From IMG/VR virus record IMGVR_UViG_2974646641_000001, positions 1 to 64,000 of that record: a stretch of DNA of 64,000 nucleotides; one strand, given 5' to 3'. Positions within the stretch are counted from its first letter, which is position 1; every line of letters starts with the position of its first letter. The notes below the pieces were generated by a model. The model worked only from the letters and a program-made list of their open reading frames with translations. It did no database searches and was not told the origin of the DNA. The DNA is from a virus (Duplodnaviria; Caudoviricetes). The position numbers were made by a program, and so were the translations under genes. This document shows, one piece after another, positions 64 to 61,820 of this stretch.

Positions 64-661
64 ATCTTTTTTATTTGTGTCAAAAATAAAGAATGCCGTT
101 ATATCAACGTTTCTAGCCACCTCCAAAACTTTTTAAATTAGAATTTAATGAGAGATATTTTATGTGTAGAAATTTTTATTTTTTCACAAACAGCAAACGT
201 CTGATTCACCCTCTAGTGTAACGTACGGGGCGATGAGAGGGGGACGGAGTGTTGACGAAGCTTTAGCTGAGGCAACACGTAGGCTAGGGGTGAGGGGTCT
301 GGGCTTGCCCAGCATAGTCACCTAGTAAATGGCTTGACGTGTCTGTGATGTGTCACCTAGCTTGTCACTCGGTGTGATTGATAGTTGTACATAATTAGTA
401 TGTTTGATGATAGAGTTGCTCACAGTGTGAAGCGTAAGCGAGCTACTGTGAGTTACGAAGCGAAGCGAGTTACCTTATAAGGATAAAAAGGTATGGTTTA
501 ACATATTTAAGTACCAAACTAGCCTAAAGATAAATAAAAAAATTTTTCATTAGTCACTTTATTTGTCGAAAATAAGTTTCAACAACCATCACTATTCGTC
601 TTTTTCAACCTATATTGAAAGCATATAATTTAAGTTATTTCACAAAGGAGGTTTCACGATA

Positions 662-862: not shown

Positions 863-1075
863 ACCTCTCCTTTAATTCATTCATTTTCATTTTCCTTATT
901 CATACACTTTCCTCCTGTGAGAGATTAATTTCTCTCTACATATATACTCGGTGTGGCAGATAATTATTATCTAAAAAAACCGCTGTTCGGCGCACAACTG
1001 CGATGTCCCGCAATGTTTTCCTATGCCTTTTTCTATCGGGACTGTAAATAATAAGATTAGAGAGGAGTTTTTAAC

Positions 1076-2137: not shown

Positions 2138-2232
2138 TGATATTATTTCCTAGTCTTGATTAGGCTAGGGTACATATTTAGCTCAATGAGCAATACAGCG
2201 AGGTAGTTTTCAACTCGCTTATGTTACATAGA

Positions 2233-2306
2233 CGGGATATAGGACAGCTTGGTAGTTCACTCGGTTTGGAACCGAGACGTCGCTGGTTCAAATCCAGCTA
2301 TCCTGA
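2233..2306 (+). tRNA. tRNA-Pro(TGG), CCA not encoded
   Basis: Acceptor CGGGATA/TATCCTG, anticodon arm CTCGG-TTTGGAA-CCGAG, T arm GCTGG-TTCAAAT-CCAGC. Confidence 0.9.
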
Positions 2307-2828: not shown

Positions 2829-2988
2829 TTAAGTTAAACGTGCCCGCGTCTCATAAACGGGCCTTATAAACACAGCACTTTTGCATTAATATGGTTGGAG
2901 GGTCACCATATTGCCCGGCAGAGGCTTTGTATCTGGCCGCTAGTCCTGATAAGTGACGTCTACTTATCCGACCCCATACATAATCGCA

Positions 2989-3030: not shown

Positions 3031-3103
3031 GCTCCCCTAGTGTAATTGGTTAACACGCTAGGTTTCCAACCTAGTAATGTCGGTTCAAGTCCGGCCGGGA
3101 GCT
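3031..3103 (+). tRNA. tRNA-Gly(TCC), CCA not encoded
   Basis: Acceptor GCTCCCC/CGGGAGC (one mismatch), anticodon arm CTAGG-TTTCCAA-CCTAG, T arm GTCGG-TTCAAGT-CCGGC. Confidence 0.88.
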
Positions 3104-3222
3104 TGTAGCTTAATTACAATAAAGTAAAACGTTTCTTGGTGTTTTCTTTCCATGTTCTTTTAAACCAAGAGTACATAAAATGTAGATTTTACAGTCTATA
3201 TTATAGCATATAATGAGGTGAT

Positions 3223-8908: not shown

Positions 8909-9033
8909 TCCGGCTCCCGCGGTCACTGGCGTTACCCCTAACGTGAATAGCGCTACGGTGGTAGCTAAGTAATAAGCCCGATTATTAAACCTCCTCATTT
9001 GAGGAGGTGTACATATCTACATGATAGGAGGTA

Positions 9034-9495
9034 ATGTCCTTGGCAAAGAATTTTGATGTTTATGATAACACGGACAAAAAGGTCGTAACTAATCAACCGT
9101 CCCCCGTTGTTATTTCGGGACTTTCCCCAGCCACCAAGTATTCTGGTTATAAGATTGCCTACACTGGCGAAAGTGCAAAGACAACGATTGATGACTTTAC
9201 AACTACTAACCAAGTGCCCGGCAAGCCGTCATTAGCGGTTAGCGCTGGTGACGGTAAATTAGATGTCACCTTCTCTGACGGTCAGAATGTCGGCACAGCA
9301 GTCACTAAGCGCACTGTTTACTGGAAAACAGCAGATGGCCACAACGGCACTGCCGATTTCGGTACGTCATTAACCGGCTCGGTTGACGGCTTAACAAACG
9401 GCACGGAATATACATTACAAGGTATATGTACAAACGCCGCTGGCGATTCTGAAAAATCAGATGAAGTAAAAGGTACTCCAGTCGCGGCTGGATAA
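9034..9495 (+). CDS. fibronectin type III/Ig-like virion decoration protein
   Basis: VISGLSPATKY, GLTNGTEYTLQ...NAAGDSEKS FN3-like signatures. Confidence 0.7.
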   Translation: MSLAKNFDVYDNTDKKVVTNQPSPVVISGLSPATKYSGYKIAYTGESAKTTIDDFTTTNQVPGKPSLAVSAGDGKLDVTFSDGQNVGTAVTKRTVYWKTADGHNGTADFGTSLTGSVDGLTNGTEYTLQGICTNAAGDSEKSDEVKGTPVAAG

Positions 9496-9535
9496 TCCTA
9501 CCCCGTTTTTCGGGGGTACATAGGAGGTGTAATAG

Positions 9536-9823
9536 ATGTCGGTGACAATTGATGACTTTAAGAATCAAATTAACGCAGATTCTGATGAAGATGTTGATTT
9601 ATATTTTAACCATGCTGTTGATTACGTCAATTTTTACGTGTCAAGAGTCGCTGGTCAATTCGAGGGTGTTCGTGAAAAACAATTTGAGGCTATTGTAGAT
9701 AGAGCTGTATTAGAAGTTGCTACGACCCTATACTTGAAACGTGACGGAGCGCCCGTCAGTGGCACTGTTAATTCCTCCTCACTAGAAACCATTATGAATT
9801 ATGGTAGAAACTTCTCAATCTAG
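9536..9823 (+). CDS. head-tail connector (gp6-like)
   Basis: Size, position, AVLEVATTLYLKRDG motif. Confidence 0.75.
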   Translation: MSVTIDDFKNQINADSDEDVDLYFNHAVDYVNFYVSRVAGQFEGVREKQFEAIVDRAVLEVATTLYLKRDGAPVSGTVNSSSLETIMNYGRNFSI

Positions 9824-11721: not shown

Positions 11722-11848
11722 ATTAGCTAAGGTTACTCCTAGTGTGAGTAATGTAACAATTGAAACTGAATAATCACCTACATACCCCGTCTGGGGTGTG
11801 TGTACATATCCAAAAATAAAATATTAGATGAAAGACGAGGAGATTCAC

Positions 11849-18163: not shown

Positions 18164-18224
18164 CACCATATTTGGGGGCCACACCCCCAAATATACATAC
18201 ATCATTAACATAGGAGGTAATATA

Positions 18225-20009
18225 ATGGCGTTAAAGAATGATGAATTCAGTATCGGTGGATTGAACAGCCGCTCCGACTTACATGTTATTATGGGTATGG
18301 TGTTGCCACCGATTGCCCCAACAATGTCAGAGTTATCGACAGATATTCCCGCTAAATACGGTAACTATTTTGGCGGAATTGATTATACATCAAAAACAAT
18401 TAACATTCCAATTACGATAATGGCTCCACATAACTCACAATCATATATAGACTACGCGCAAACCTTGGCCGGGTTGTTATTAACAGACAATCCAGACAAC
18501 AACCAAGAATTACCATTGGTATTTGGTTTTCAACCAGATTTAACATATTGGGGGCACATCACTTCAATATCTGACCCGCAAGTGACACAGGAAGGGTCTT
18601 GGGATTCGACATCAACTATCACATTCGTAATGTCTGACCCTAGAGCAACTATGCCACAGGTAGAAATGCCATTGAAAAACGGGTTAAATGTTATAACCGT
18701 TGATGGAACTGCACAAACAGAACCAGTTATCCAAATTATTCCAAAAAGAGCGTTAAAATATGTTGGATATACTCTCAATGGCGGTAACTATGGCGTCGGC
18801 CCAGAAGACCCAATTGACCAAGATAATGCCGTTCAAGAGTGGCAAAGTGTTATTGATGACCCCATTAACTCGATGGCTTTATGGAGTAATGGAGATGACG
18901 CATTATCACCAATAAAAACTGGGACTGCGCATGTTTTTCAAGGTAGTGCTACTATTAATGAAGACTCTGGCTCAATGATTGTTAAAAAAGTCAATGGCAA
19001 AAAGGATTATGGAACAATGCCATCTAGTTTGGCAGAAAATGATAATAAGTGGCTCGGCCCCGGCTATAAGTATAATGGTATGACTCAGTCTCTTTCGGAG
19101 TGGAGAATTAAAGCAGGAATTCATCATACTAAATGGCAAGGGGCACATCGTGGAAGGGCAATTGGTCAAATTCAACTATTATGGTTAAGCCCAAACGGAG
19201 AAACAATTGGCCATTTTGGAATTTCTGACCATGCTTATGGTGCTCGCCCAGAATGTTTTTTGCAGATTACACAGCCCGGTGGGAATTTTGACGTTGGAGA
19301 TGGGACTCACAGGACTTTCTACTATGGTTATGGCCCCTCTGGGGCATTTAGCAATGATTCAGACCAATCAATTAAAATAAAAACAGGTACAAAAACAATC
19401 TCTAAGACAGTTTCCTCCCGTGCTAAGAACGGCAAAGTAACTAAGAAGACAATTAACGAAAAGGTAGATACCTACGTAACGGTTCAAAACAGGAGAGAGT
19501 ACAGTGCGTTGTCCGACGCGTGGTTATTTTTAGATTTATCATATTATGATAATGAATATCACTATTCAATTACTCAACATAATTTAGCAAACGGTCAACC
19601 ATATACAAATCCTAACAAGTATTTCATCGTCAGTTCTCAACAACCAGTAAAGACAGGCACGGCTTACGATACAGCATTAGGAGGTTTTGCGATATTCTTC
19701 GGAAAAAGACCAATCACGGAAGATGTTCAAAAAATAGACTATGATGAACCGTATATGTCGTTAACCCATTTGCAAGTATTTAAACACAATAAGGTTGATA
19801 GTAAGGATACACCAACATATATTGCGAATGCAGGATCTGAAATTATTATGGATTCAGAAGCTCAAAGAACAACGGTTGATGGGAAAATAGAATATCCTGT
19901 TTGGTCAACAAGTTATCCAAAACTAAAGCCGGGTGTTAACTCTCTTAATATTGTTGGAGATTTAGATGACGCAAAAATGGTTCTGAAATATTTACCAAAA
20001 AAGCTTTAG
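18225..20009 (+). CDS. distal tail protein (evolved Dit with internal insertion)
   Basis: Follows TMP; QPDLTYWG...TITFVMSDP N-terminus and YPKLKPGVNSL C-terminus; 594 aa implies an inserted binding module. Confidence 0.85.
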   Translation: MALKNDEFSIGGLNSRSDLHVIMGMVLPPIAPTMSELSTDIPAKYGNYFGGIDYTSKTINIPITIMAPHNSQSYIDYAQTLAGLLLTDNPDNNQELPLVFGFQPDLTYWGHITSISDPQVTQEGSWDSTSTITFVMSDPRATMPQVEMPLKNGLNVITVDGTAQTEPVIQIIPKRALKYVGYTLNGGNYGVGPEDPIDQDNAVQEWQSVIDDPINSMALWSNGDDALSPIKTGTAHVFQGSATINEDSGSMIVKKVNGKKDYGTMPSSLAENDNKWLGPGYKYNGMTQSLSEWRIKAGIHHTKWQGAHRGRAIGQIQLLWLSPNGETIGHFGISDHAYGARPECFLQITQPGGNFDVGDGTHRTFYYGYGPSGAFSNDSDQSIKIKTGTKTISKTVSSRAKNGKVTKKTINEKVDTYVTVQNRREYSALSDAWLFLDLSYYDNEYHYSITQHNLANGQPYTNPNKYFIVSSQQPVKTGTAYDTALGGFAIFFGKRPITEDVQKIDYDEPYMSLTHLQVFKHNKVDSKDTPTYIANAGSEIIMDSEAQRTTVDGKIEYPVWSTSYPKLKPGVNSLNIVGDLDDAKMVLKYLPKKL

Positions 20010-20062
20010 ACGGAACGATAGAGAACTCCTCTATCGTACATACACAAGAGGAGGTATTGTTA

Positions 20063-30087: not shown

Positions 30088-30148
30088 TATTAATCCTCAC
30101 AGTTATGTGAGGGTACATAAAATACAAAAAAAGGAATGGTGAGATACA

Positions 30149-31120
30149 ATGGAACTATTTAATCAAGAAGTCTGGGACACAAAAGTCAAAGATGAAGATA
30201 AAGAAGCCTTAGAAGATTACTTATTAGAGCTTGAAGCCAACGGTCGGGCCGTTAAGACTCGTTATCAGTATAAGGCAGATATTCGTGGATTCTTATGCTA
30301 TTCAAATAAGAAATATCCAAACAAAACTGTCACACAATTAAAGCGTAAAGATTTTCGTAATTTCTTCTTATTAATGCAACGTGATGGAACCAGCCATGCA
30401 CGTATTAATCGTTTTCAAAGTAGTATTAGAAATTTTCTGGAATATCTGACAATCAGTGAAGACTACGATTACGAAGTAAACCAAATGCACGCCATTAAGG
30501 GTCTTATCAAAGAACCTGTTAAAACACACACTTATTTAACAGATGGCGAAGTTAACATGTTGCTAGATTATTTAATTCGCCATAAGAAATACGAAAAGGC
30601 TTTATTTGTTAGCCTTGCTTATGAATCATGCGGTCGGCGGAATGAAATTCTACAAGTTAAAAAGGATAAATTCGTGGAATCAAATCAAACAAACACCGTT
30701 ATTGGTAAGCGTGCAAAACGCTTTAAATTAATCTATTTCAAGCGTACTCAACAAATCGCTGACCTTTATTTAAAGCAACGGGGCGATGATGACATTGATA
30801 GTTTATGGATTTCAGACTACGGTGACGAACGCCACGCAATTAACTACTCCGTGTTCTATGAATGGTGCAACCAATTCGGTCGTATTTTAACAAAACTCAC
30901 TGGTCATGAGGTTGCTGTTCACCCTCACGATTTCAGACGTACTGGTCTTGAAAACTACTCTACTGGTGTTCATCACGTATTAAAGGAAGCAGACAAGGAC
31001 GCATTACCTTTGGAAGTGCTGAAACTGGTTGCTCATCATTCAAGTTCTGAAACTACGCAAGGTTATCTACAAGACCATGATGATGACAAATTGAGTGACG
31101 CATTCGGAATTGAAATTTAA
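30149..31120 (+). CDS. tyrosine recombinase (integrase/Xer family)
   Basis: SAM-like N-domain; catalytic R (CGRRNE), HDFR, AHH, TQGY. Confidence 0.88.
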   Translation: MELFNQEVWDTKVKDEDKEALEDYLLELEANGRAVKTRYQYKADIRGFLCYSNKKYPNKTVTQLKRKDFRNFFLLMQRDGTSHARINRFQSSIRNFLEYLTISEDYDYEVNQMHAIKGLIKEPVKTHTYLTDGEVNMLLDYLIRHKKYEKALFVSLAYESCGRRNEILQVKKDKFVESNQTNTVIGKRAKRFKLIYFKRTQQIADLYLKQRGDDDIDSLWISDYGDERHAINYSVFYEWCNQFGRILTKLTGHEVAVHPHDFRRTGLENYSTGVHHVLKEADKDALPLEVLKLVAHHSSSETTQGYLQDHDDDKLSDAFGIEI

Positions 31121-39107: not shown

Positions 39108-39929
39108 TTACAAAGTACGTTTTATCAATTTTGCGGCCTTGCTTGCCACACTGTCACCGAATTTTTCTCTGGTAAGACTTACTGCGTTTGAGTCTGCTTT
39201 AGTAAACCAATAACCACCGAAATTGGCGCATTCACCTCTAATAACCATGCTAATTCCTCCTCGGCCAACCCTTAACTGACGAGCGGCCTCACGTTGAGAT
39301 TTAAAGCATAGTGGCTCTTTGTTTTCTAGGTTGATTGCAATTACAAAACATTTTAAAATGCTAGACTTAATTTCTTGTAACTTCTCTTTAGTAATCTCAT
39401 TTTTGGATTCCGTAAAATAGTAACCACCTGCCTGTTGATATTCACCTTTTAAAACTTTATTAATGTTTCCCTGTCCGACTAACGTCTGTCGTTCGGCTTC
39501 ACGCTGTGAGTGAAAATATTGCTTTTTAAATGTCTTCAAATCGTATGCTGTTAAAGGGCGCCCCTTTGCCTCACCGTGCCTCTCCGTATACTGGCGATTA
39601 TAAGAAGCAGTGCACCATTCAAGGTTATCAACACGATTATCGGTTCTAATGCAATTTTTATGGTTAACTTGCGGTAGGCTATCAGAATTCGGAATGAAAG
39701 TTTCTGCCACCAATCGGTGAACTTTTTTCGATTGCCATTTACCATTGTAAAAAACGTTCGCCGTTAAATAACTATGACTATTGTCATATTGTGGTCTAAT
39801 CCCACCTTTAATATATCGTTCACCATTCTCATCGCAAATCACCATATCCAGCATATTAATTCTTCCACGAGAACTCGCTTCTACGCCGAGTACACTGGGA
39901 ACTGGTTTCCAAATTTCCGTTTCATTCAT
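39108..39929 (-). CDS. NUMOD4-HNH homing endonuclease with duplicated C-terminal DNA-binding module
   Basis: EIWKP, VHRLVAE...QVNHKN...NLEWCT; two FxSQREA repeats. Confidence 0.88.
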   Translation of the reverse strand: MNETEIWKPVPSVLGVEASSRGRINMLDMVICDENGERYIKGGIRPQYDNSHSYLTANVFYNGKWQSKKVHRLVAETFIPNSDSLPQVNHKNCIRTDNRVDNLEWCTASYNRQYTERHGEAKGRPLTAYDLKTFKKQYFHSQREAERQTLVGQGNINKVLKGEYQQAGGYYFTESKNEITKEKLQEIKSSILKCFVIAINLENKEPLCFKSQREAARQLRVGRGGISMVIRGECANFGGYWFTKADSNAVSLTREKFGDSVASKAAKLIKRTL

Positions 39930-40005: not shown

Positions 40006-40539
40006 TTATTGTTTACAAAACATGTTTCTTGTAATCTTCACTAATTCTTGCTTGTTATTTAATTCAATAGCTAGTGCCATCTCAACCTTTTCAATCTCGT
40101 CTTCTTGTGCCAAATAATAATCTGTGCGTTTTGTAATGTTATGAATCTGTTGAAGATTATTTAACGCCTTGGTGATTTCGTTAATTTTCTTATTTTGTTT
40201 GCGAAGTAATCTATCGAATGTTTCAGTCAAACCGCCAATAATCTCATTAATCACATCTTTATTCACTATTTCGCTATTGGAACGTTTCGCAAGCCAAACA
40301 CAATCATGTAAACTATATACGGTGATGAGATTTCTATTATGAACGTCAACTACGACACGAATTTCATCAACGTCTAAGAACCAAATACCGTCTTGATTCG
40401 TCTTGCTGAAAGTGCCGTGAGAAACAATATTAAGCAACCAAGGTTGCATAAGCGATTTGGAAATTCCAAATCTCTGACGTGCTCTTTTCTTAAAATGCTC
40501 ACTTCTTGAATAAGCCAAGATTTCGTTCCGATTAATCAT
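40006..40539 (-). CDS. hypothetical protein
   Basis: SEHFKKRARQRFGI N-terminus, coiled-coil C-terminus. Confidence 0.6.
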   Translation of the reverse strand: MINRNEILAYSRSEHFKKRARQRFGISKSLMQPWLLNIVSHGTFSKTNQDGIWFLDVDEIRVVVDVHNRNLITVYSLHDCVWLAKRSNSEIVNKDVINEIIGGLTETFDRLLRKQNKKINEITKALNNLQQIHNITKRTDYYLAQEDEIEKVEMALAIELNNKQELVKITRNMFCKQ

Positions 40540-40861
40540 TATAATTCTCCTTTTTTGTCAGTGCTACTTGAAGTTTAATGAAAATATCACGTGCTTGTTC
40601 GCTATCATATCTTCCAATGAACGACACATTGTCTGTATCTTTCATTTTCTGCATAATTCTAATCATCTTTTGATTATTTGAGATGATGAAGATTTTCTCA
40701 TCACTCTTATCTGCAAAGCTCATAATATAATTAAGGACATCTTTTTCAGTGTTACTCTTATCGAATCTCCTAAAATAGAAGTTCACCCAGTAATCACTTG
40801 CACAGGCATATGCAACTCTAACACCATCACTCGCTTTATAATAAGTAAGATAGACTTTCAT
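40532..40861 (-). CDS. hypothetical protein
   Basis: Overlaps the mazF-like stop; GGTGG SD. Confidence 0.6.
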   Translation of the reverse strand: MKVYLTYYKASDGVRVAYACASDYWVNFYFRRFDKSNTEKDVLNYIMSFADKSDEKIFIISNNQKMIRIMQKMKDTDNVSFIGRYDSEQARDIFIKLQVALTKKENYND

Positions 40862-41220
40862 AGCGATAATGCCACCACCAAACACTTATTGACTTCTTTC
40901 ATAATATCATCGTCCAAACTACCAATCTTGAAATAAAGTTGGTCTACGTTAATTGTACGAACCTGCTCACATAGTGCAGTGTTTGAAACAACTTCACCGT
41001 GATTTGGCAATCCAAATTCGATATGAGTTGGTAAATGGTGTTTGTTACGAGTAGTTAGTGGTACAATCGTAATTGCTGGTGAGTATTTGTTTGCCAAGTT
41101 ATTTGATACAACCAACACTGGTCTTTTTCCACGTTGCACTGCGTCACGTGAACTTTGCCGTTCACCCAAATCTGCATAGTATACATTTCCTCGTTCAATT
41201 CTCTCATTATTTACTAACAT
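40858..41220 (-). CDS. mazF: MazF/PemK-family endoribonuclease (EndoA-like), no cognate antitoxin evident
   Basis: RGNVYYADL...KRPVLVVSN...SPAITIVPLTT...LPTHIE...CEQVRTI...KIGSL aligns by eye with B. subtilis EndoA; catalytic Arg and Thr present. Confidence 0.9.
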   Translation of the reverse strand: MLVNNERIERGNVYYADLGERQSSRDAVQRGKRPVLVVSNNLANKYSPAITIVPLTTRNKHHLPTHIEFGLPNHGEVVSNTALCEQVRTINVDQLYFKIGSLDDDIMKEVNKCLVVALSL

Positions 41221-41253
41221 CGTAATAATTCCTCCTTGATATTTTGTAATTAC

Positions 41254-41282
41254 ATTATACGTCCAGAAACAACTTTTGTCAA
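41254..41282 (-). promoter_or_regulatory. consensus promoter of the mazF-like operon
   Basis: TTGACA-17-TATAAT, then AAGGAGG SD. Confidence 0.85.
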
Positions 41283-41403
41283 GCTAAAAAATACATTTTT
41301 TTGATTTGCGTGTTTGGTCTTTTCAAATCTTTCAATCGTTTTATAGTTGTTCTTCTAAAGTTTCCTTCATATAAATATCCTTCTTTCTTTTTTCTATGTA
41401 AAA

Positions 41404-41432
41404 AGCATACCATTTCTGATATGCTTTGTCAA
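41404..41432 (-). promoter_or_regulatory. promoter driving a 9-codon minigene (41341-41370)
   Basis: TTGACA-17-TG-TATGCT; AGAAGG SD; MKETLEEQL*. Confidence 0.6.
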
Positions 41433-41464
41433 GTATTATTATTAGTGTTACTATTGATGATTAT

Positions 41465-42079
41465 CTACTTTAGCAATGTATTGGTCGTATAAATAGTATA
41501 ATCACAACGATAAATAAATAATCGCTTGCCATCAATCAAAAGTGACGTGCTACTAGGAACCTGTGTTGACTTATAACTAACTGTATCACCAGCGAAAGTA
41601 GCAATTGGCTGTCCGGCTTGTGAGCGAATAAGAACAACCTTACTAGAACCTGTAAAATAGTTCTGATACTTGTTTACAAAGCGGTTCATAAATGGAACTG
41701 AACTATTATTGTTAGTGACATTATATCGCTTTGGATATTTATCAAGTACGTTAGTCAATCCATCTTGGTAGGCGATTAAACTACTGCCTACGTGAGTGAT
41801 TTGTTTTCCGCCTAATGTAATATTAAGCACAGATGAAGCCTTAGATGTTTCGCCATTTTCATTTACTTGGTCAAACTCTTTATCTCGTGCAATCGACAAT
41901 GATTTCCCGTGTATAGTGTCAATTTTTTGTGCATTGTAGTCATATGTTTGTACCGTCATAGGTAATCCATATGTTTGTTGCTCAAAGTCTGAAAACCAGC
42001 TATCTACAAATTGACAGCCCCCTAAAACAACCGTAAGCGATAGCGTAAGCGCTACAAGCAATAGTTTCTTTTTATTCAT
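41465..42079 (-). CDS. lipoprotein (DUF5052-like)
   Basis: Lipobox VLGGC after a basic/hydrophobic signal peptide. Confidence 0.7.
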   Translation of the reverse strand: MNKKKLLLVALTLSLTVVLGGCQFVDSWFSDFEQQTYGLPMTVQTYDYNAQKIDTIHGKSLSIARDKEFDQVNENGETSKASSVLNITLGGKQITHVGSSLIAYQDGLTNVLDKYPKRYNVTNNNSSVPFMNRFVNKYQNYFTGSSKVVLIRSQAGQPIATFAGDTVSYKSTQVPSSTSLLIDGKRLFIYRCDYTIYTTNTLLK

Positions 42080-50649: not shown

Positions 50650-51465
50650 AATAAATAGAGAAATCATACGTGTTTCTATGTTTATGGAAAAATTTCTCGC
50701 CTTAGAAACCGGCTCTGTGTGCATATCAACTAATAACAACCAATCTGACGAACTGGTCTGTTTCTCAACGAGTTGGATTCAACGTGACGTCTAGTATATG
50801 AAAAACACCTTAGTTTAGCTTAGCCCGGCACTCACATAATCGTGCCCCAACCATAAAAACCCAAAACCAATTAATATTTAGATTGATTCTGGTTTGTTTA
50901 GTTAGATGTAACTTTAATTTAACACAAGACTAGAACCACCGCTGTTTGTAATGCGATTTGTTGAGCTGAACAGTCCTTTGCCTTAGCTCATATAAAAAAG
51001 TGCAGACTAATACACTGACTAAGAAACAAAGGATTGTGAGTTGTTCGCAACGCTGATAGTGTCGCCTCACGGGAGATTTATCCTTGATTAGTATTTCAAC
51101 TAATCACTAGCTTTCTACTACTACGTCATCTGTCCAAGTAGCTTAGCTTTCGCATATCTTCTAGTTTGCCTTACAGAGTGAGTTGAGTCTAATCGCCATA
51201 TTAATAGTAAATAACAGAACTCATATCTGCCAGTGACTAGCTTAGTACGATTAGCGAACTTTGGCCCTTTTCCATTCCGTCTTTAGCATATCCATTTCAT
51301 AAGGACTTAGCTTTCATCATACGATTAGAGGCTTCGGAAATTTTACCCCTTGACGCAACCAGCACCACTTCAAATCTCCTAAAGCAATACCGGCACTTAC
51401 CTATTTGTTAGTAACGCAGTAGGTTTTCTGCGCTGAATATTTGGTGCTTATTAAGTTTTCGTTAT
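50650..51465 (-). ncRNA. candidate large structured non-coding RNA (~800 nt)
   Basis: No ORF >=60 aa; two upstream minus-strand promoters; many hairpins and GAAA/CGAA-type loops. Confidence 0.5.
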
Positions 51466-51476
51466 TTTATGTCTAT

Positions 51477-61719: not shown

Positions 61720-61820
61720 TCGCTAAAAATAACGAATAAAATGGTAATTTTACCAAGAAAACAGTTGACAAAAGCGTGCCAGTTTGGTACGCTGTACATA
61801 CAATAAAGGAGGAATGTGAT

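Follow-up and report, generated by a model that had tools for sequence, protein, structure and literature searches.

We found that a virulent Lactiplantibacillus plantarum siphophage (Tybeckvirinae) carries a MazF-family endoribonuclease gene in its early/replication block, and that its intergenic regions contain hairpins followed by UACAUA. Such hairpin-UACAUA modules track the presence of a phage mazF, while the avoidance of UACAUA in reading frames does not. In our judgement, there is about an even chance that the gene encodes an active MazF without antitoxin, a putative U^ACAUA cutter, which trims the phage's own late messages and tRNA precursors. The window analyzed is a stretch of 64,000 nucleotides, and all coordinates refer to it.

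The mazF gene and its product

The gene, its expression signals, and its two downstream neighbors are all on the minus strand.

40858..41220, minus: mazF, 120-aa PemK/MazF-family endoribonuclease gene, ATG start, catalytic R33 and T56
41231..41237, minus: Shine-Dalgarno sequence AAGGAGG, 10 nt before the mazF ATG
41254..41282, minus: proximal promoter TTGACA-17-TATAAT, matching the consensus at 12 of 12 positions and conserved in Satyr and Maenad
41395..41432, minus: distal promoter cassette TTGACA-AAGCATATCAGAAATGG-TATGCT upstream of mazF, with promoter TTGACA-17-TATGCT at 41432..41404
40532..40861, minus: gpD, 109 aa, ATG overlapping the mazF stop (ATGA), PHROG 14545
40006..40539, minus: gpE, 177 aa, overlapping gpD by 8 nt, PHROG 5083

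The original prediction, made from the sequence, of a full-length MazF fold with catalytic arginine and threonine is borne out. The product matches the Pfam profile PF02452 (PemK_toxin) with E 3.1e-22 and 79.3 bits (cut-off 23.1) over profile positions 1-107 of 109, and in alignments with solved relatives R33 and T56 stand opposite the catalytic R25 and T48 of EndoA. It also belongs to PHROG 1936, "MazF-like growth inhibitor" (E 1.2e-38). Among 31 homologues, R33 is invariant and T56 nearly so, and the LPTH and EQxRT segments are conserved in the phage protein. Among solved structures, S. aureus MazF (4mzm) and B. subtilis EndoA (4mdx) come nearest, with E ~5e-19; these matches are much weaker than the PDB matches of the probable host's orthologue to B. 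subtilis and B. anthracis EndoA (E ~1e-51).

The identity of the phage protein is ~40% to the B. subtilis and S. aureus enzymes and 36% to the alr-linked EndoA orthologue of the probable host. In most Bacillota, EndoA orthologues have >60% identity to B. subtilis EndoA (10.64898/2026.08.06.743204). By high identity and linkage to alr, the phage gene does not classify as an EndoA/NdoA orthologue, as it has 36% identity to the orthologue of the probable host and resides in a phage replication block. The conserved or RNA-contacting residues of UACA-type MazF are G6, P15, G18, E20, R25, P26, N36, and R85 (PMC8634880); equivalents of G6, R25, P26, and N36 are present in the phage protein, and those of P15, G18, E20, and R85 are absent. 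Its b1-b2 loop has a 3-residue insertion where the RNA-contacting P15, G18, and E20 of EndoA sit. Given this insertion and the 36-40% identity, we treat the specificity for UACAUA as putative.

The predicted promoter and perfect Shine-Dalgarno sequence were also confirmed. The proximal promoter comprises TTGACA at 41282..41277 and TATAAT at 41259..41254 with a 17-nt spacer between them, and both it and the ribosome site are identical in the phages Satyr and Maenad. Host RNA polymerase would transcribe mazF from this consensus promoter within the early/replication block. In the distal cassette, an inverted repeat (41402..41427) covers the spacer and the -10 element, and TACATA (41395..41400) is located at the expected start site. 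This cassette is common to Bacchae and LP65, where the TACATA is often or always missing.

Antitoxin candidates and neighboring genes

No match to MazE (PF04014) or RHH (PF01402) was found at E <= 1 in the whole 73.8-kb genome, and the 245-bp spacer upstream of mazF contains no conserved ORF, in agreement with the predicted absence of a MazE/EndoAI-like gene upstream. The gene located upstream in Maenad and Satyr was considered as an antitoxin and rejected: its 86-aa product matches nothing in Pfam and looks like a membrane protein with two hydrophobic segments.

The description of mazF as an orphan holds only in part. There is no MazE-like gene, but mazF heads a transcription unit with two translationally coupled genes, possible regulators: its stop codon overlaps gpD, which in turn overlaps gpE. 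Both downstream genes are confined to this phage clade. The predicted fold of gpD is RNase H-like, without the first-strand Asp, and gpD is a candidate regulator or partner of MazF. In the gpE model, three helices and four strands make up the N-terminal domain, and there is also a long helical hairpin, which dominates the fold searches; the N-terminal domain produced only a weak RelE-like match, 3bpq_B. Searches of gpE against Pfam, NCBIfam, and PADLOC yielded sub-threshold matches only, with one homologue matching DUF4258 at E 0.11. In all examined Tybeckvirinae gpE adjoins mazF, and mazF itself is kept at 60-97% identity in every examined genome of the subfamily, each time with the same two downstream genes. 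Both gpD and gpE could be neutralizing partners of MazF.

Hence it is conceivable, though we think it unlikely, that mazF-gpD(-gpE) forms a toxin-antitoxin or exclusion module in reverse order, in which a coupled downstream protein neutralizes MazF and whose role is in host takeover, superinfection exclusion, or abortive functions, not in processing phage RNA. Such a module would fit the ATGA overlap, the clade restriction of gpD and gpE, and the finding that in three genera the 109-aa and 177-aa genes strictly accompany mazF while the upstream genes vary; moreover, phage inactivators that bind MazF and are unrelated to MazE are known, such as AimX and YosL of phi3T (PMC10769878). However, an RNase H-like protein does not have a known antitoxin fold, mazF has different neighbors in Bacchae, 3-521, TR-TP2, and NatCom, and the hairpin-UACAUA modules are left without an account. 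A reverse-order module is compatible with phage RNA processing by MazF, as timing control.

Distribution of UACAUA in the phage genome

The strict site of EndoA-type MazF is UACAUA, as established by experiment for B. subtilis, Listeria, and S. aureus (10.64898/2026.08.06.743204, 10.1101/2023.03.12.532304), and the site guessed in the original prediction is identical to it. The phage ORFs contain no sense-strand UACAUA, compared to 13.8 expected from codon shuffles. The gene calls were crude (longest-ORF, greedy) and at first included one copy, removed after correcting an over-extended GTG start; in Lenus and Maenad, too, some "ORF" hits come from starts called too far upstream or from false ORFs. 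All 15 sense copies of TACATA are intergenic, and the hexamer ranks fourth out of 3,338 by intergenic enrichment, behind only A6, AGGAGG, and T6. The avoidance in ORFs is restricted to the sense strand, the antisense counts being normal. The plain TACATA count in the whole window is 27 versus 44.6 expected; plain counts and Markov expectations mask the signal, since the motif has been relocated, not removed.

Hairpin-TACATA modules

The modules on the plus strand of the window are listed below.

357..393, plus: weak hairpin (dG -6.4), 3-nt gap, TACATA; intergenic, sense strand
919..942, plus: hairpin, no gap, TACATA; intergenic
2149..2176, plus: hairpin then TACATA, upstream of tRNA-Pro
2197..2230, plus: hairpin then TACATA, ending 2 nt before tRNA-Pro (2233..2306)
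2943..2982, plus: hairpin then TACATA, 48 nt upstream of tRNA-Gly (3031..3103)
3134..3177, plus: long-loop hairpin then TACATA, upstream of the large terminase gene (3223)
8989..9015, plus: hairpin (dG -15.9) then TACATA, 19 nt before the gene at 9034
9501..9522, plus: hairpin then TACATA, which abuts the GGAGG of the gene at 9536
11779..11808, plus: TACATA, hairpin, TACATA, with the first motif as the 5' stem arm; precedes the gene at 11828
18169..18199, plus: hairpin then TACATA, between the tape-measure gene and the gene at 18225
20016..20042, plus: hairpin then TACATA, before the gene at 20057
30095..30119, plus: hairpin then TACATA, before the gene at 30149
61765..61800, plus: TTGACA-17-TACGCT promoter-like element with a 9-bp hairpin at 61773..61793 (spacer and -10), then TACATA at 61795..61800

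At 13 of the 15 intergenic sites, a hairpin ends at most 5 nt before TACATA. The two exceptions are the copy at 11779, itself the 5' arm in the stem of the following site, and that at 388, where the stem is weak. At seven orthologous late-gene junctions in five genomes from three genera TACATA is invariant, while the stems differ in sequence and stay abutting, with the stems of this phage, Maenad, and B2 at the terminase junction falling outside the 34-nt fold window. In particular, Maenad, B2, Lenus, and SA-C12 retain the terminase-junction TACATA; the module of 9501..9522 is conserved in four relatives, and sites orthologous to 8989..9015 occur in four relatives, with different stems in each case. 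A scan against Rfam matched only the two tRNAs and assigned no family to the hairpin modules. Sites for processing of late mRNAs and tRNA precursors had been predicted, and modules are indeed present at late-gene junctions and flank both tRNA genes, conserved despite the changed stems.

The same modules could be transcription signals, a terminator-like stem combined with a start-site or late-promoter element, that have nothing to do with MazF, in which case mazF would be an accessory "moron". Two sites in the window and five in Bacchae coincide with the start site expected for a TTGACA-17-TAnnnT promoter, the hairpin being formed by its spacer, and in Sha1, LP65, and Bacchae some of the sites come after genuine terminators made of a hairpin and a T-run. 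This promoter cassette accounts for half of the hairpin sites of Bacchae and for those at 41395 and 61795 here, and its inverted repeat also occurs without TACATA. On the other hand, the late-operon stems have no -35 element, and at 9517 and the orthologous sites, where TACATA abuts the Shine-Dalgarno sequence, transcription starting 7 nt further on would delete the ribosome site. Sense-only avoidance with normal antisense counts fits a nuclease acting on RNA and not a promoter, and the hexamer is exactly the known MazF site. We thus regard transcription signals as an improbable explanation, the least probable of those considered. For the copy at 9517, RNA processing is favored over a -10 promoter element, as TACATA directly abuts the Shine-Dalgarno sequence.

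Comparison across phages

Co-occurrence of gene and motif had been proposed as a check, and for hairpin modules the result was positive. In the lactobacillus phages with mazF (Tybeckvirinae, Bacchae, and 3-521), 69 of 119 sense-intergenic TACATA copies are hairpin-adjacent, compared to 7 of 44 in phages without it (LP65, Sha1, SPO1, K, A511, and others); the random intergenic background is 5-9%. The difference is significant at the site level (Fisher P = 1.2e-6), with few independent lineages behind it, the Tybeckvirinae being one clade and Bacchae and 3-521 both belonging to Herelleviridae. Among the phages lacking mazF, hairpins adjoin three of five sites in Sha1 and one of nine in LP65, which infects the same host.

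The avoidance of UACAUA in ORFs follows another pattern: it is as strong in mazF-less phages of hosts with EndoA-type enzymes as in mazF-bearing ones. UACAUA is the first- or second-ranked strand-asymmetric avoided hexamer in LP65, SPO1, K, and A511, all lacking mazF, and no avoidance was seen in T4 and Lactococcus phage 949. The predicted immunity of phage ORFs therefore stands as a count (zero or one sense copy versus 13.8) but is not specific to mazF. Two Clostridia phages with mazF, FP_Brigit and NatCom_42228, show no avoidance, which counts against processing by the phage enzyme. The avoided variants are ranked TACATA >> TACATC > TACTTA, the profile being the same in L. plantarum phages with and without mazF, and this order mirrors the published off-targets of S. 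aureus MazF. No second avoided motif was found in the mazF-bearing clade, whose top asymmetric 5- to 7-mers are pyrimidine runs. A different short site for the phage MazF is thus disfavored, as an unneutralized enzyme should leave an avoidance mark.

Host MazF and host messages

As the host we used a genome of the genus Lactiplantibacillus (G017), probably L. plantarum: the recA planF primer has an exact match in it. Its alr-linked MazF is very near to B. subtilis and B. anthracis EndoA and has no adjacent MazE. Because mazF-less phages avoid UACAUA equally and the host has this EndoA orthologue, the avoidance in ORFs is better explained as a phage adaptation to the host's own EndoA-type MazF. 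Host mRNA degradation, also part of the original prediction, is doubtful; since only 13 of 360 sampled host CDS contain a sense UACAUA, a global host shut-off by the phage MazF is unlikely.

The host enzyme alone could both select for avoidance and cut the intergenic sites, which counts against processing by the phage MazF. The phage enzyme would then have another specificity or role, for instance attacking particular host RNAs selectively, competing with co-infecting phages, or disturbing the control of the host MazF. Of the alternatives, we consider this the most serious, with perhaps one chance in four. It is consistent with the EndoA orthologue lacking an adjacent MazE, with avoidance in mazF-less phages of such hosts and its absence in T4 and 949, with the variant profile shared by phages with and without mazF, and with the b1-b2 loop of the phage protein being unlike that of EndoA. 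Still, it does not explain why the hairpin-UACAUA modules are frequent only in mazF-carrying phages, or why LP65 has so few on the same host, and no second avoided motif marks a different specificity.

Proposed RNA processing

Under processing by the phage MazF, the enzyme would most likely cut U^ACAUA, or a motif containing UACAUA, in single-stranded RNA. As the phage reading frames are free of UACAUA, only intergenic copies would be cut, directly 3' of the stem-loops that separate late genes and flank the two tRNA genes. Long late transcripts would thereby be split into segments, the upstream piece ending in a protective 3' hairpin and the downstream piece starting with 5'-OH-ACAUA just ahead of the ribosome-binding site. 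We infer that this cleavage takes place in vivo and affects RNA stability. An unneutralized MazF could be affordable due to the general avoidance that arose under the host MazF and did not evolve for the phage enzyme.

More tentatively, and at somewhat less than even chances, lactobacillus phages of at least two families may have domesticated an antitoxin-less MazF as a dedicated mRNA-punctuation enzyme, with the hairpin-UACAUA modules marking the cuts in long late transcripts and tRNA precursors, every phage message starting with ACAUA, and the purge by host EndoA, as in virulent phages of many Bacillota, coming first. The ACAUA start could arise by initiation at TACATA-bearing promoters or by cleavage. 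If so, the ORF purge would show that in Gram-positive bacteria MazF encoded on the chromosome acts strongly and widely against phages.

The known MazF toxins are growth inhibitors that the host encodes and an antitoxin keeps in check. Processing by the phage MazF, if true, would be the first example of such a toxin serving a virus as an RNA-processing enzyme. The avoidance result may outweigh it. UACAUA ranks at or next to the top of the strand-asymmetrically avoided hexamers in virulent Bacillus, Staphylococcus, Listeria, and Lactiplantibacillus phages regardless of mazF, genome-scale evidence for strong selection on phages by chromosomal EndoA-type MazF that bears on the dispute over the purpose of chromosomal MazEF.

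Comparison with known systems

The phage protein shares with EndoA/NdoA (MazF-bs) and the S. aureus and Listeria MazF the Pfam family, the catalytic Arg/Thr, residues equivalent to P26 and N36, and the segments LPTH and EQxRT, and the EndoA-type hexamer is identical to the site enriched between and avoided within the genes of this phage. Unlike these enzymes, it has only 36-40% identity to them, three additional residues in the b1-b2 loop, and no P15, G18, or E20; its gene is phage-encoded, has a consensus promoter, and is neither linked to alr nor accompanied by MazE/EndoAI. Other PHROG 1936 genes occur in Maenad, Satyr, ATCC 8014-B2, Lenus, SA-C12, and many other phages, with orthologues at 60-97% identity in the same neighborhood. 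The presence of the phage mazF gene is already recorded in RefSeq annotation; in the literature searched, no function, specificity, or link to a cis-motif is described for these phage genes.

T4 RegB is a phage sequence-specific endoribonuclease (GGAG) that schedules expression, inactivating early mRNAs at the Shine-Dalgarno sequence. Under the proposed processing, the two enzymes would be alike in function, each being a phage-encoded RNase that recognizes a short motif and cleaves phage messages in their leaders or between genes. RegB, however, cuts Shine-Dalgarno sequences, whereas here the sites are upstream of intact ones, beside hairpins. Host MazEF defends against SPbeta/phi3T phages, which encode the inhibitors AimX and YosL (PMC10769878; 10.1101/2023.04.27.537455). 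In both cases the same enzyme family is central to the phage-host conflict in Bacillota, but SPbeta/phi3T are rich in UACAU and carry MazF inhibitors, while this phage has ORFs free of the sites and encodes the nuclease itself.

The mazF Locus

The complete phage genome comprises 73,787 bp, 64 kb of which are covered by the window, and is ∼88% identical at the nucleotide level to Maenad and Satyr, virulent siphophages of Lactiplantibacillus plantarum (Tybeckvirinae). The locus around mazF contains the following features.

39108..39929, minus strand, HNH/NUMOD homing-endonuclease gene
40006..40539, minus strand, gpE gene, 177 aa, third overlapping gene
40532..40861, minus strand, gpD gene, 109 aa, ATGA overlap with mazF
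40858..41220, minus strand, mazF, 120 aa
41282..41254, minus strand, mazF promoter TTGACA-17-TATAAT
41404-41432, minus strand, promoter cassette TTGACA-AAGCATATCAGAAATGG-TATGCT-TTT
41465-42079, minus strand, DUF5052 lipoprotein gene

The mazF product matches the Pfam PemK_toxin profile over its whole length (E 3.1e-22), as well as PHROG 1936, "MazF-like growth inhibitor." The nearest solved structures are those of S. aureus MazF and B. subtilis EndoA (E ∼5e-19); R33 and T56 align with their catalytic R25 and T48, and both are kept among 31 homologues. The promoter agrees with the consensus at 12/12 positions, AAGGAGG lies 10 nt upstream of the ATG, and Satyr and Maenad have the same sequence for both elements. 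No conserved ORF was found in the upstream spacer, the PF04014 and PF01402 profiles had no match in the genome, and Pfam had no match for the gene upstream in the relatives, whose product looks like a small membrane protein. Thus, the original prediction of a MazF with the catalytic Arg/Thr pair, preceded by a consensus promoter and Shine-Dalgarno sequence and by no MazE-like gene, holds in each of these respects. The gene has already been annotated in relatives, while no described function for it was found in the literature searched.

The first of three overlapping genes, mazF forms a module with gpD, gpE, and a transglycosylase gene, kept in Maenad, Satyr, ATCC 8014-B2 (B2), Lenus, and SA-C12, with varying upstream genes. 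The homing-endonuclease gene is inserted between the gpE and LysM-transglycosylase genes; Satyr, Maenad, B2, and Lenus have no such gene there. Both gpD (13 proteins found) and gpE are restricted to the Tybeckvirinae clade. The gpD model (pLDDT 79; three strands, helix, strand, helix, strand, helix) weakly matches RNase H-like folds (best E 4.7e-4, TM-scores 0.44-0.58 among the top matches), and its predicted fold has no canonical first-strand Asp. gpE combines a long helical hairpin with a small alpha/beta domain at its N terminus, which is built from three helices and four strands and gave a single, weak RelE-like match. The suggestion that both proteins look RNase-like is only weakly borne out; either could be a candidate controller or helper of MazF.

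In 41221-41464, between the lipoprotein gene and mazF, three small genes of Maenad and Satyr (∼64, 80, and 86 aa) are missing, which leaves two tandem promoters directly upstream of mazF. The lipoprotein gene (E 1.8e-74) has 85.7% nucleotide identity to genes of the unrelated myophages Semele and Bromius, which suggests recent exchange between L. plantarum phages.

Intergenic TACATA Sites

All 15 sense-strand copies of TACATA in the genome are intergenic (15/15), with 13.8 expected in ORFs from codon shuffles; for the reverse complement, 12 copies were observed in ORFs vs 20.9 expected. An apparent ORF copy at 61795 was rejected, as the gene call was over-extended to a GTG start and the site precedes the real ATG. 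By sense-strand intergenic enrichment TACATA is fourth of 3,338 hexamers, after A6, AGGAGG, and T6. A stem-loop ends 0-5 nt upstream of 13 of the 15 copies, the one at 388 being weak, and the first TACATA at 11779 serves as the 5′ arm in the stem that belongs to the following site. The late, structural block contains 13 of the copies, which either flank the two tRNA genes or precede the start codon of the next gene by 14-50 nt.

Seven orthologous junctions were compared in five genomes of three genera. TACATA never varies; the stems ahead of it are wholly different in sequence, yet they still fold into abutting hairpins (about -8 to -17 kcal/mol), except that for the terminase junction the 34-nt fold window did not reach the stems in this phage, Maenad, and B2. 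Judged by this comparison, hairpin-TACATA appears to be a selected structure-plus-sequence module.

Two sites in the window (41395 and 61795) and 5 of 10 in Bacchae belong to promoters of the type TTGACA-17-TAnnnT, in which the spacer and -10 form a hairpin and TACATA occupies the expected start site. The cassette TTGACA-AAGCATATCAGAAATGG-TATGCT is almost letter-identical in this phage, Bacchae, and LP65; its extended form, ending in TATGCT-TTT and with an inverted repeat across spacer and -10, is also found in Bacchae (64280, 85581) and LP65 (39593, 9310, 36208; record coordinates). The short 84-95% matches arise because this cassette is common to unrelated L. plantarum phages. TACATA follows 5/12 hairpin promoters in Bacchae and 0/5 in LP65. 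Transcripts from the TACATA-bearing cassettes would start near ACAUA, the same end that read-through RNA would have if cleaved, which we record as an observation, not an explanation. Separately, 50652-51472 is an ORF-poor region at a divergent early-promoter junction.

Avoidance of TACATA in ORFs

L. plantarum phages without PF02452 avoid TACATA in ORFs at least as strongly, and so do virulent phages of hosts with experimentally known MazF specificity, none of which encodes MazF.

Sense TACATA in ORFs of phages without mazF (observed / expected)
LP65, L. plantarum: 2 / 39.1
phiJL-1, L. plantarum: 0 / 6.8
ATCC 8014-B1, L. plantarum: 0 / 4.7
SPO1, B. subtilis: 6 / 41.2
K, S. aureus: 8 / 67.7
A511, Listeria: 4 / 47.3

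When hexamers were compared, with none singled out beforehand, for strand-asymmetric depletion in ORFs (∼3,000 hexamers per phage; loci L027-L033 for LP65, L089-L108 for SPO1, K, and A511), TACATA ranked first in SPO1, K, A511, Bacchae, 3-521, and CB457P1, second in LP65, eighth in pooled Tybeckvirinae, and 73rd in this genome taken by itself, with its low counts. T4 (306th) and Lactococcus phage 949 (848th) show no such depletion.

B. subtilis EndoA is strict for the six-base site U^ACAUA, the mapped ends vanishing in an ndoA deletion (10.1101/2023.03.12.532304), and by reporter assay so are the Listeria and S. aureus enzymes, the latter having weak off-targets UACAUC and UACUUA (10.64898/2026.08.06.743204). 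Variants are avoided in L. plantarum phage ORFs in the same order: observed/expected ratios in Tybeckvirinae and mazF-less L. plantarum phages are, respectively, 0.25 and 0.09 for TACATA, 0.41 and 0.39 for TACATC, 0.57 and 0.67 for TACTTA, and ∼1 in both for changes at positions 1-4. Strand-asymmetric UACAUA depletion is a general mark of the selection that host MazF enzymes of the EndoA type exert; no description of it in DNA phages of Bacillota was found in the literature searched.

The host proxy, genome G017, exactly matches an L. plantarum-specific recA primer and is probably L. plantarum. At G017:C1:2795816-2799136, its alr gene is followed, after ∼400 bp, by an EndoA-type mazF, whose product resembles Bacillus EndoA very closely (E ∼1e-51 in PDB matches). 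The spacer contains no MazE ORF and no ORF over 27 aa; hence the probable host has a "mazF-only" arrangement, with no adjacent antitoxin for its enzyme either. In host ORFs, TACATA is depleted both ways (13 vs 42.6 expected sense, 25 vs 55.4 antisense), and the sense-specific avoidance of the phages is not seen.

As mazF-less phages avoid TACATA too and the probable host has an EndoA-type MazF, the proposed immunity of phage ORFs is best explained as the phages having adapted to the host's enzyme: the ORFs of this phage indeed contain no sense UACAUA, but the phage gene is not the cause. The proposed degradation of host mRNAs is doubtful, since only 13/360 sampled host CDS contain sense UACAUA; global shut-off of host expression would be out of reach for an enzyme strict for UACAUA.

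Restriction-type words are strongly avoided on both strands in this genome. GATC-containing hexamers and GGATG are absent from ORFs, and GATGC, GCWGC, CCWGG, GGWCC, CTGAAG, TTCGAA, TCTAGA, ATGCAT, GATATC, and CAGCTG are near zero.

Hairpin Modules and Phage mazF

We counted sense-intergenic TACATA sites that lie no more than 7 nt from the end of a strong hairpin (dG <= -7 kcal/mol); at random intergenic positions such adjacency is 5-9%.

Hairpin-adjacent TACATA
With mazF: this phage 10/14, Maenad 8/11, Lenus 9/17, B2 11/18, SA-C12 10/16, Bacchae 10/20, 3-521 11/23
Without mazF: LP65 1/9, SPO1 0/11, K 2/10, A511 1/7, Sha1 3/5, T4 0/6, 949 0/4

Pooled, mazF-carrying lactobacillus phages have 69/119 hairpin-adjacent sites vs 7/44 in LP65, phiJL-1, 8014-B1, Sha1, SPO1, K, and A511 (Fisher P = 1.2e-6, counting sites rather than independent lineages: the Tybeckvirinae form a single clade, and Bacchae and 3-521 share the family Herelleviridae). 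Moreover, intergenic TACATA is skewed to the sense strand in Tybeckvirinae (14:3, 11:2, 18:3) and not in mazF-less phages.

The best-supported reading, to which we give about an even chance, is that the unneutralised phage MazF cuts hairpin-flanked UACAUA sites between phage genes, and that ORF-wide avoidance, imposed earlier by host EndoA, would have made this possible. The main rival, that the host enzyme does all the cutting, can draw on the EndoA-type MazF of the probable host; the co-occurrence of gene and motif, the test proposed with the original prediction, favours tying the modules to the phage enzyme, and we consider this rival rather improbable.

Comparison with Known MazF Systems

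Identity between the phage MazF and the host orthologue is only 36%, and the b1-b2 loop of the phage protein is longer and devoid of P15, G18, and E20, which UACA-type enzymes conserve; its specificity is therefore inferred. MazFs of phages differ in kind: the GC-rich mazF-carrying phages of Clostridia, FP_Brigit and NatCom_42228, show no TACATA avoidance. SPbeta-type phages reportedly have many UACAU sites and, instead of avoiding them, encode inhibitors of MazF (10.1101/2023.04.27.537455; PMC10769878).
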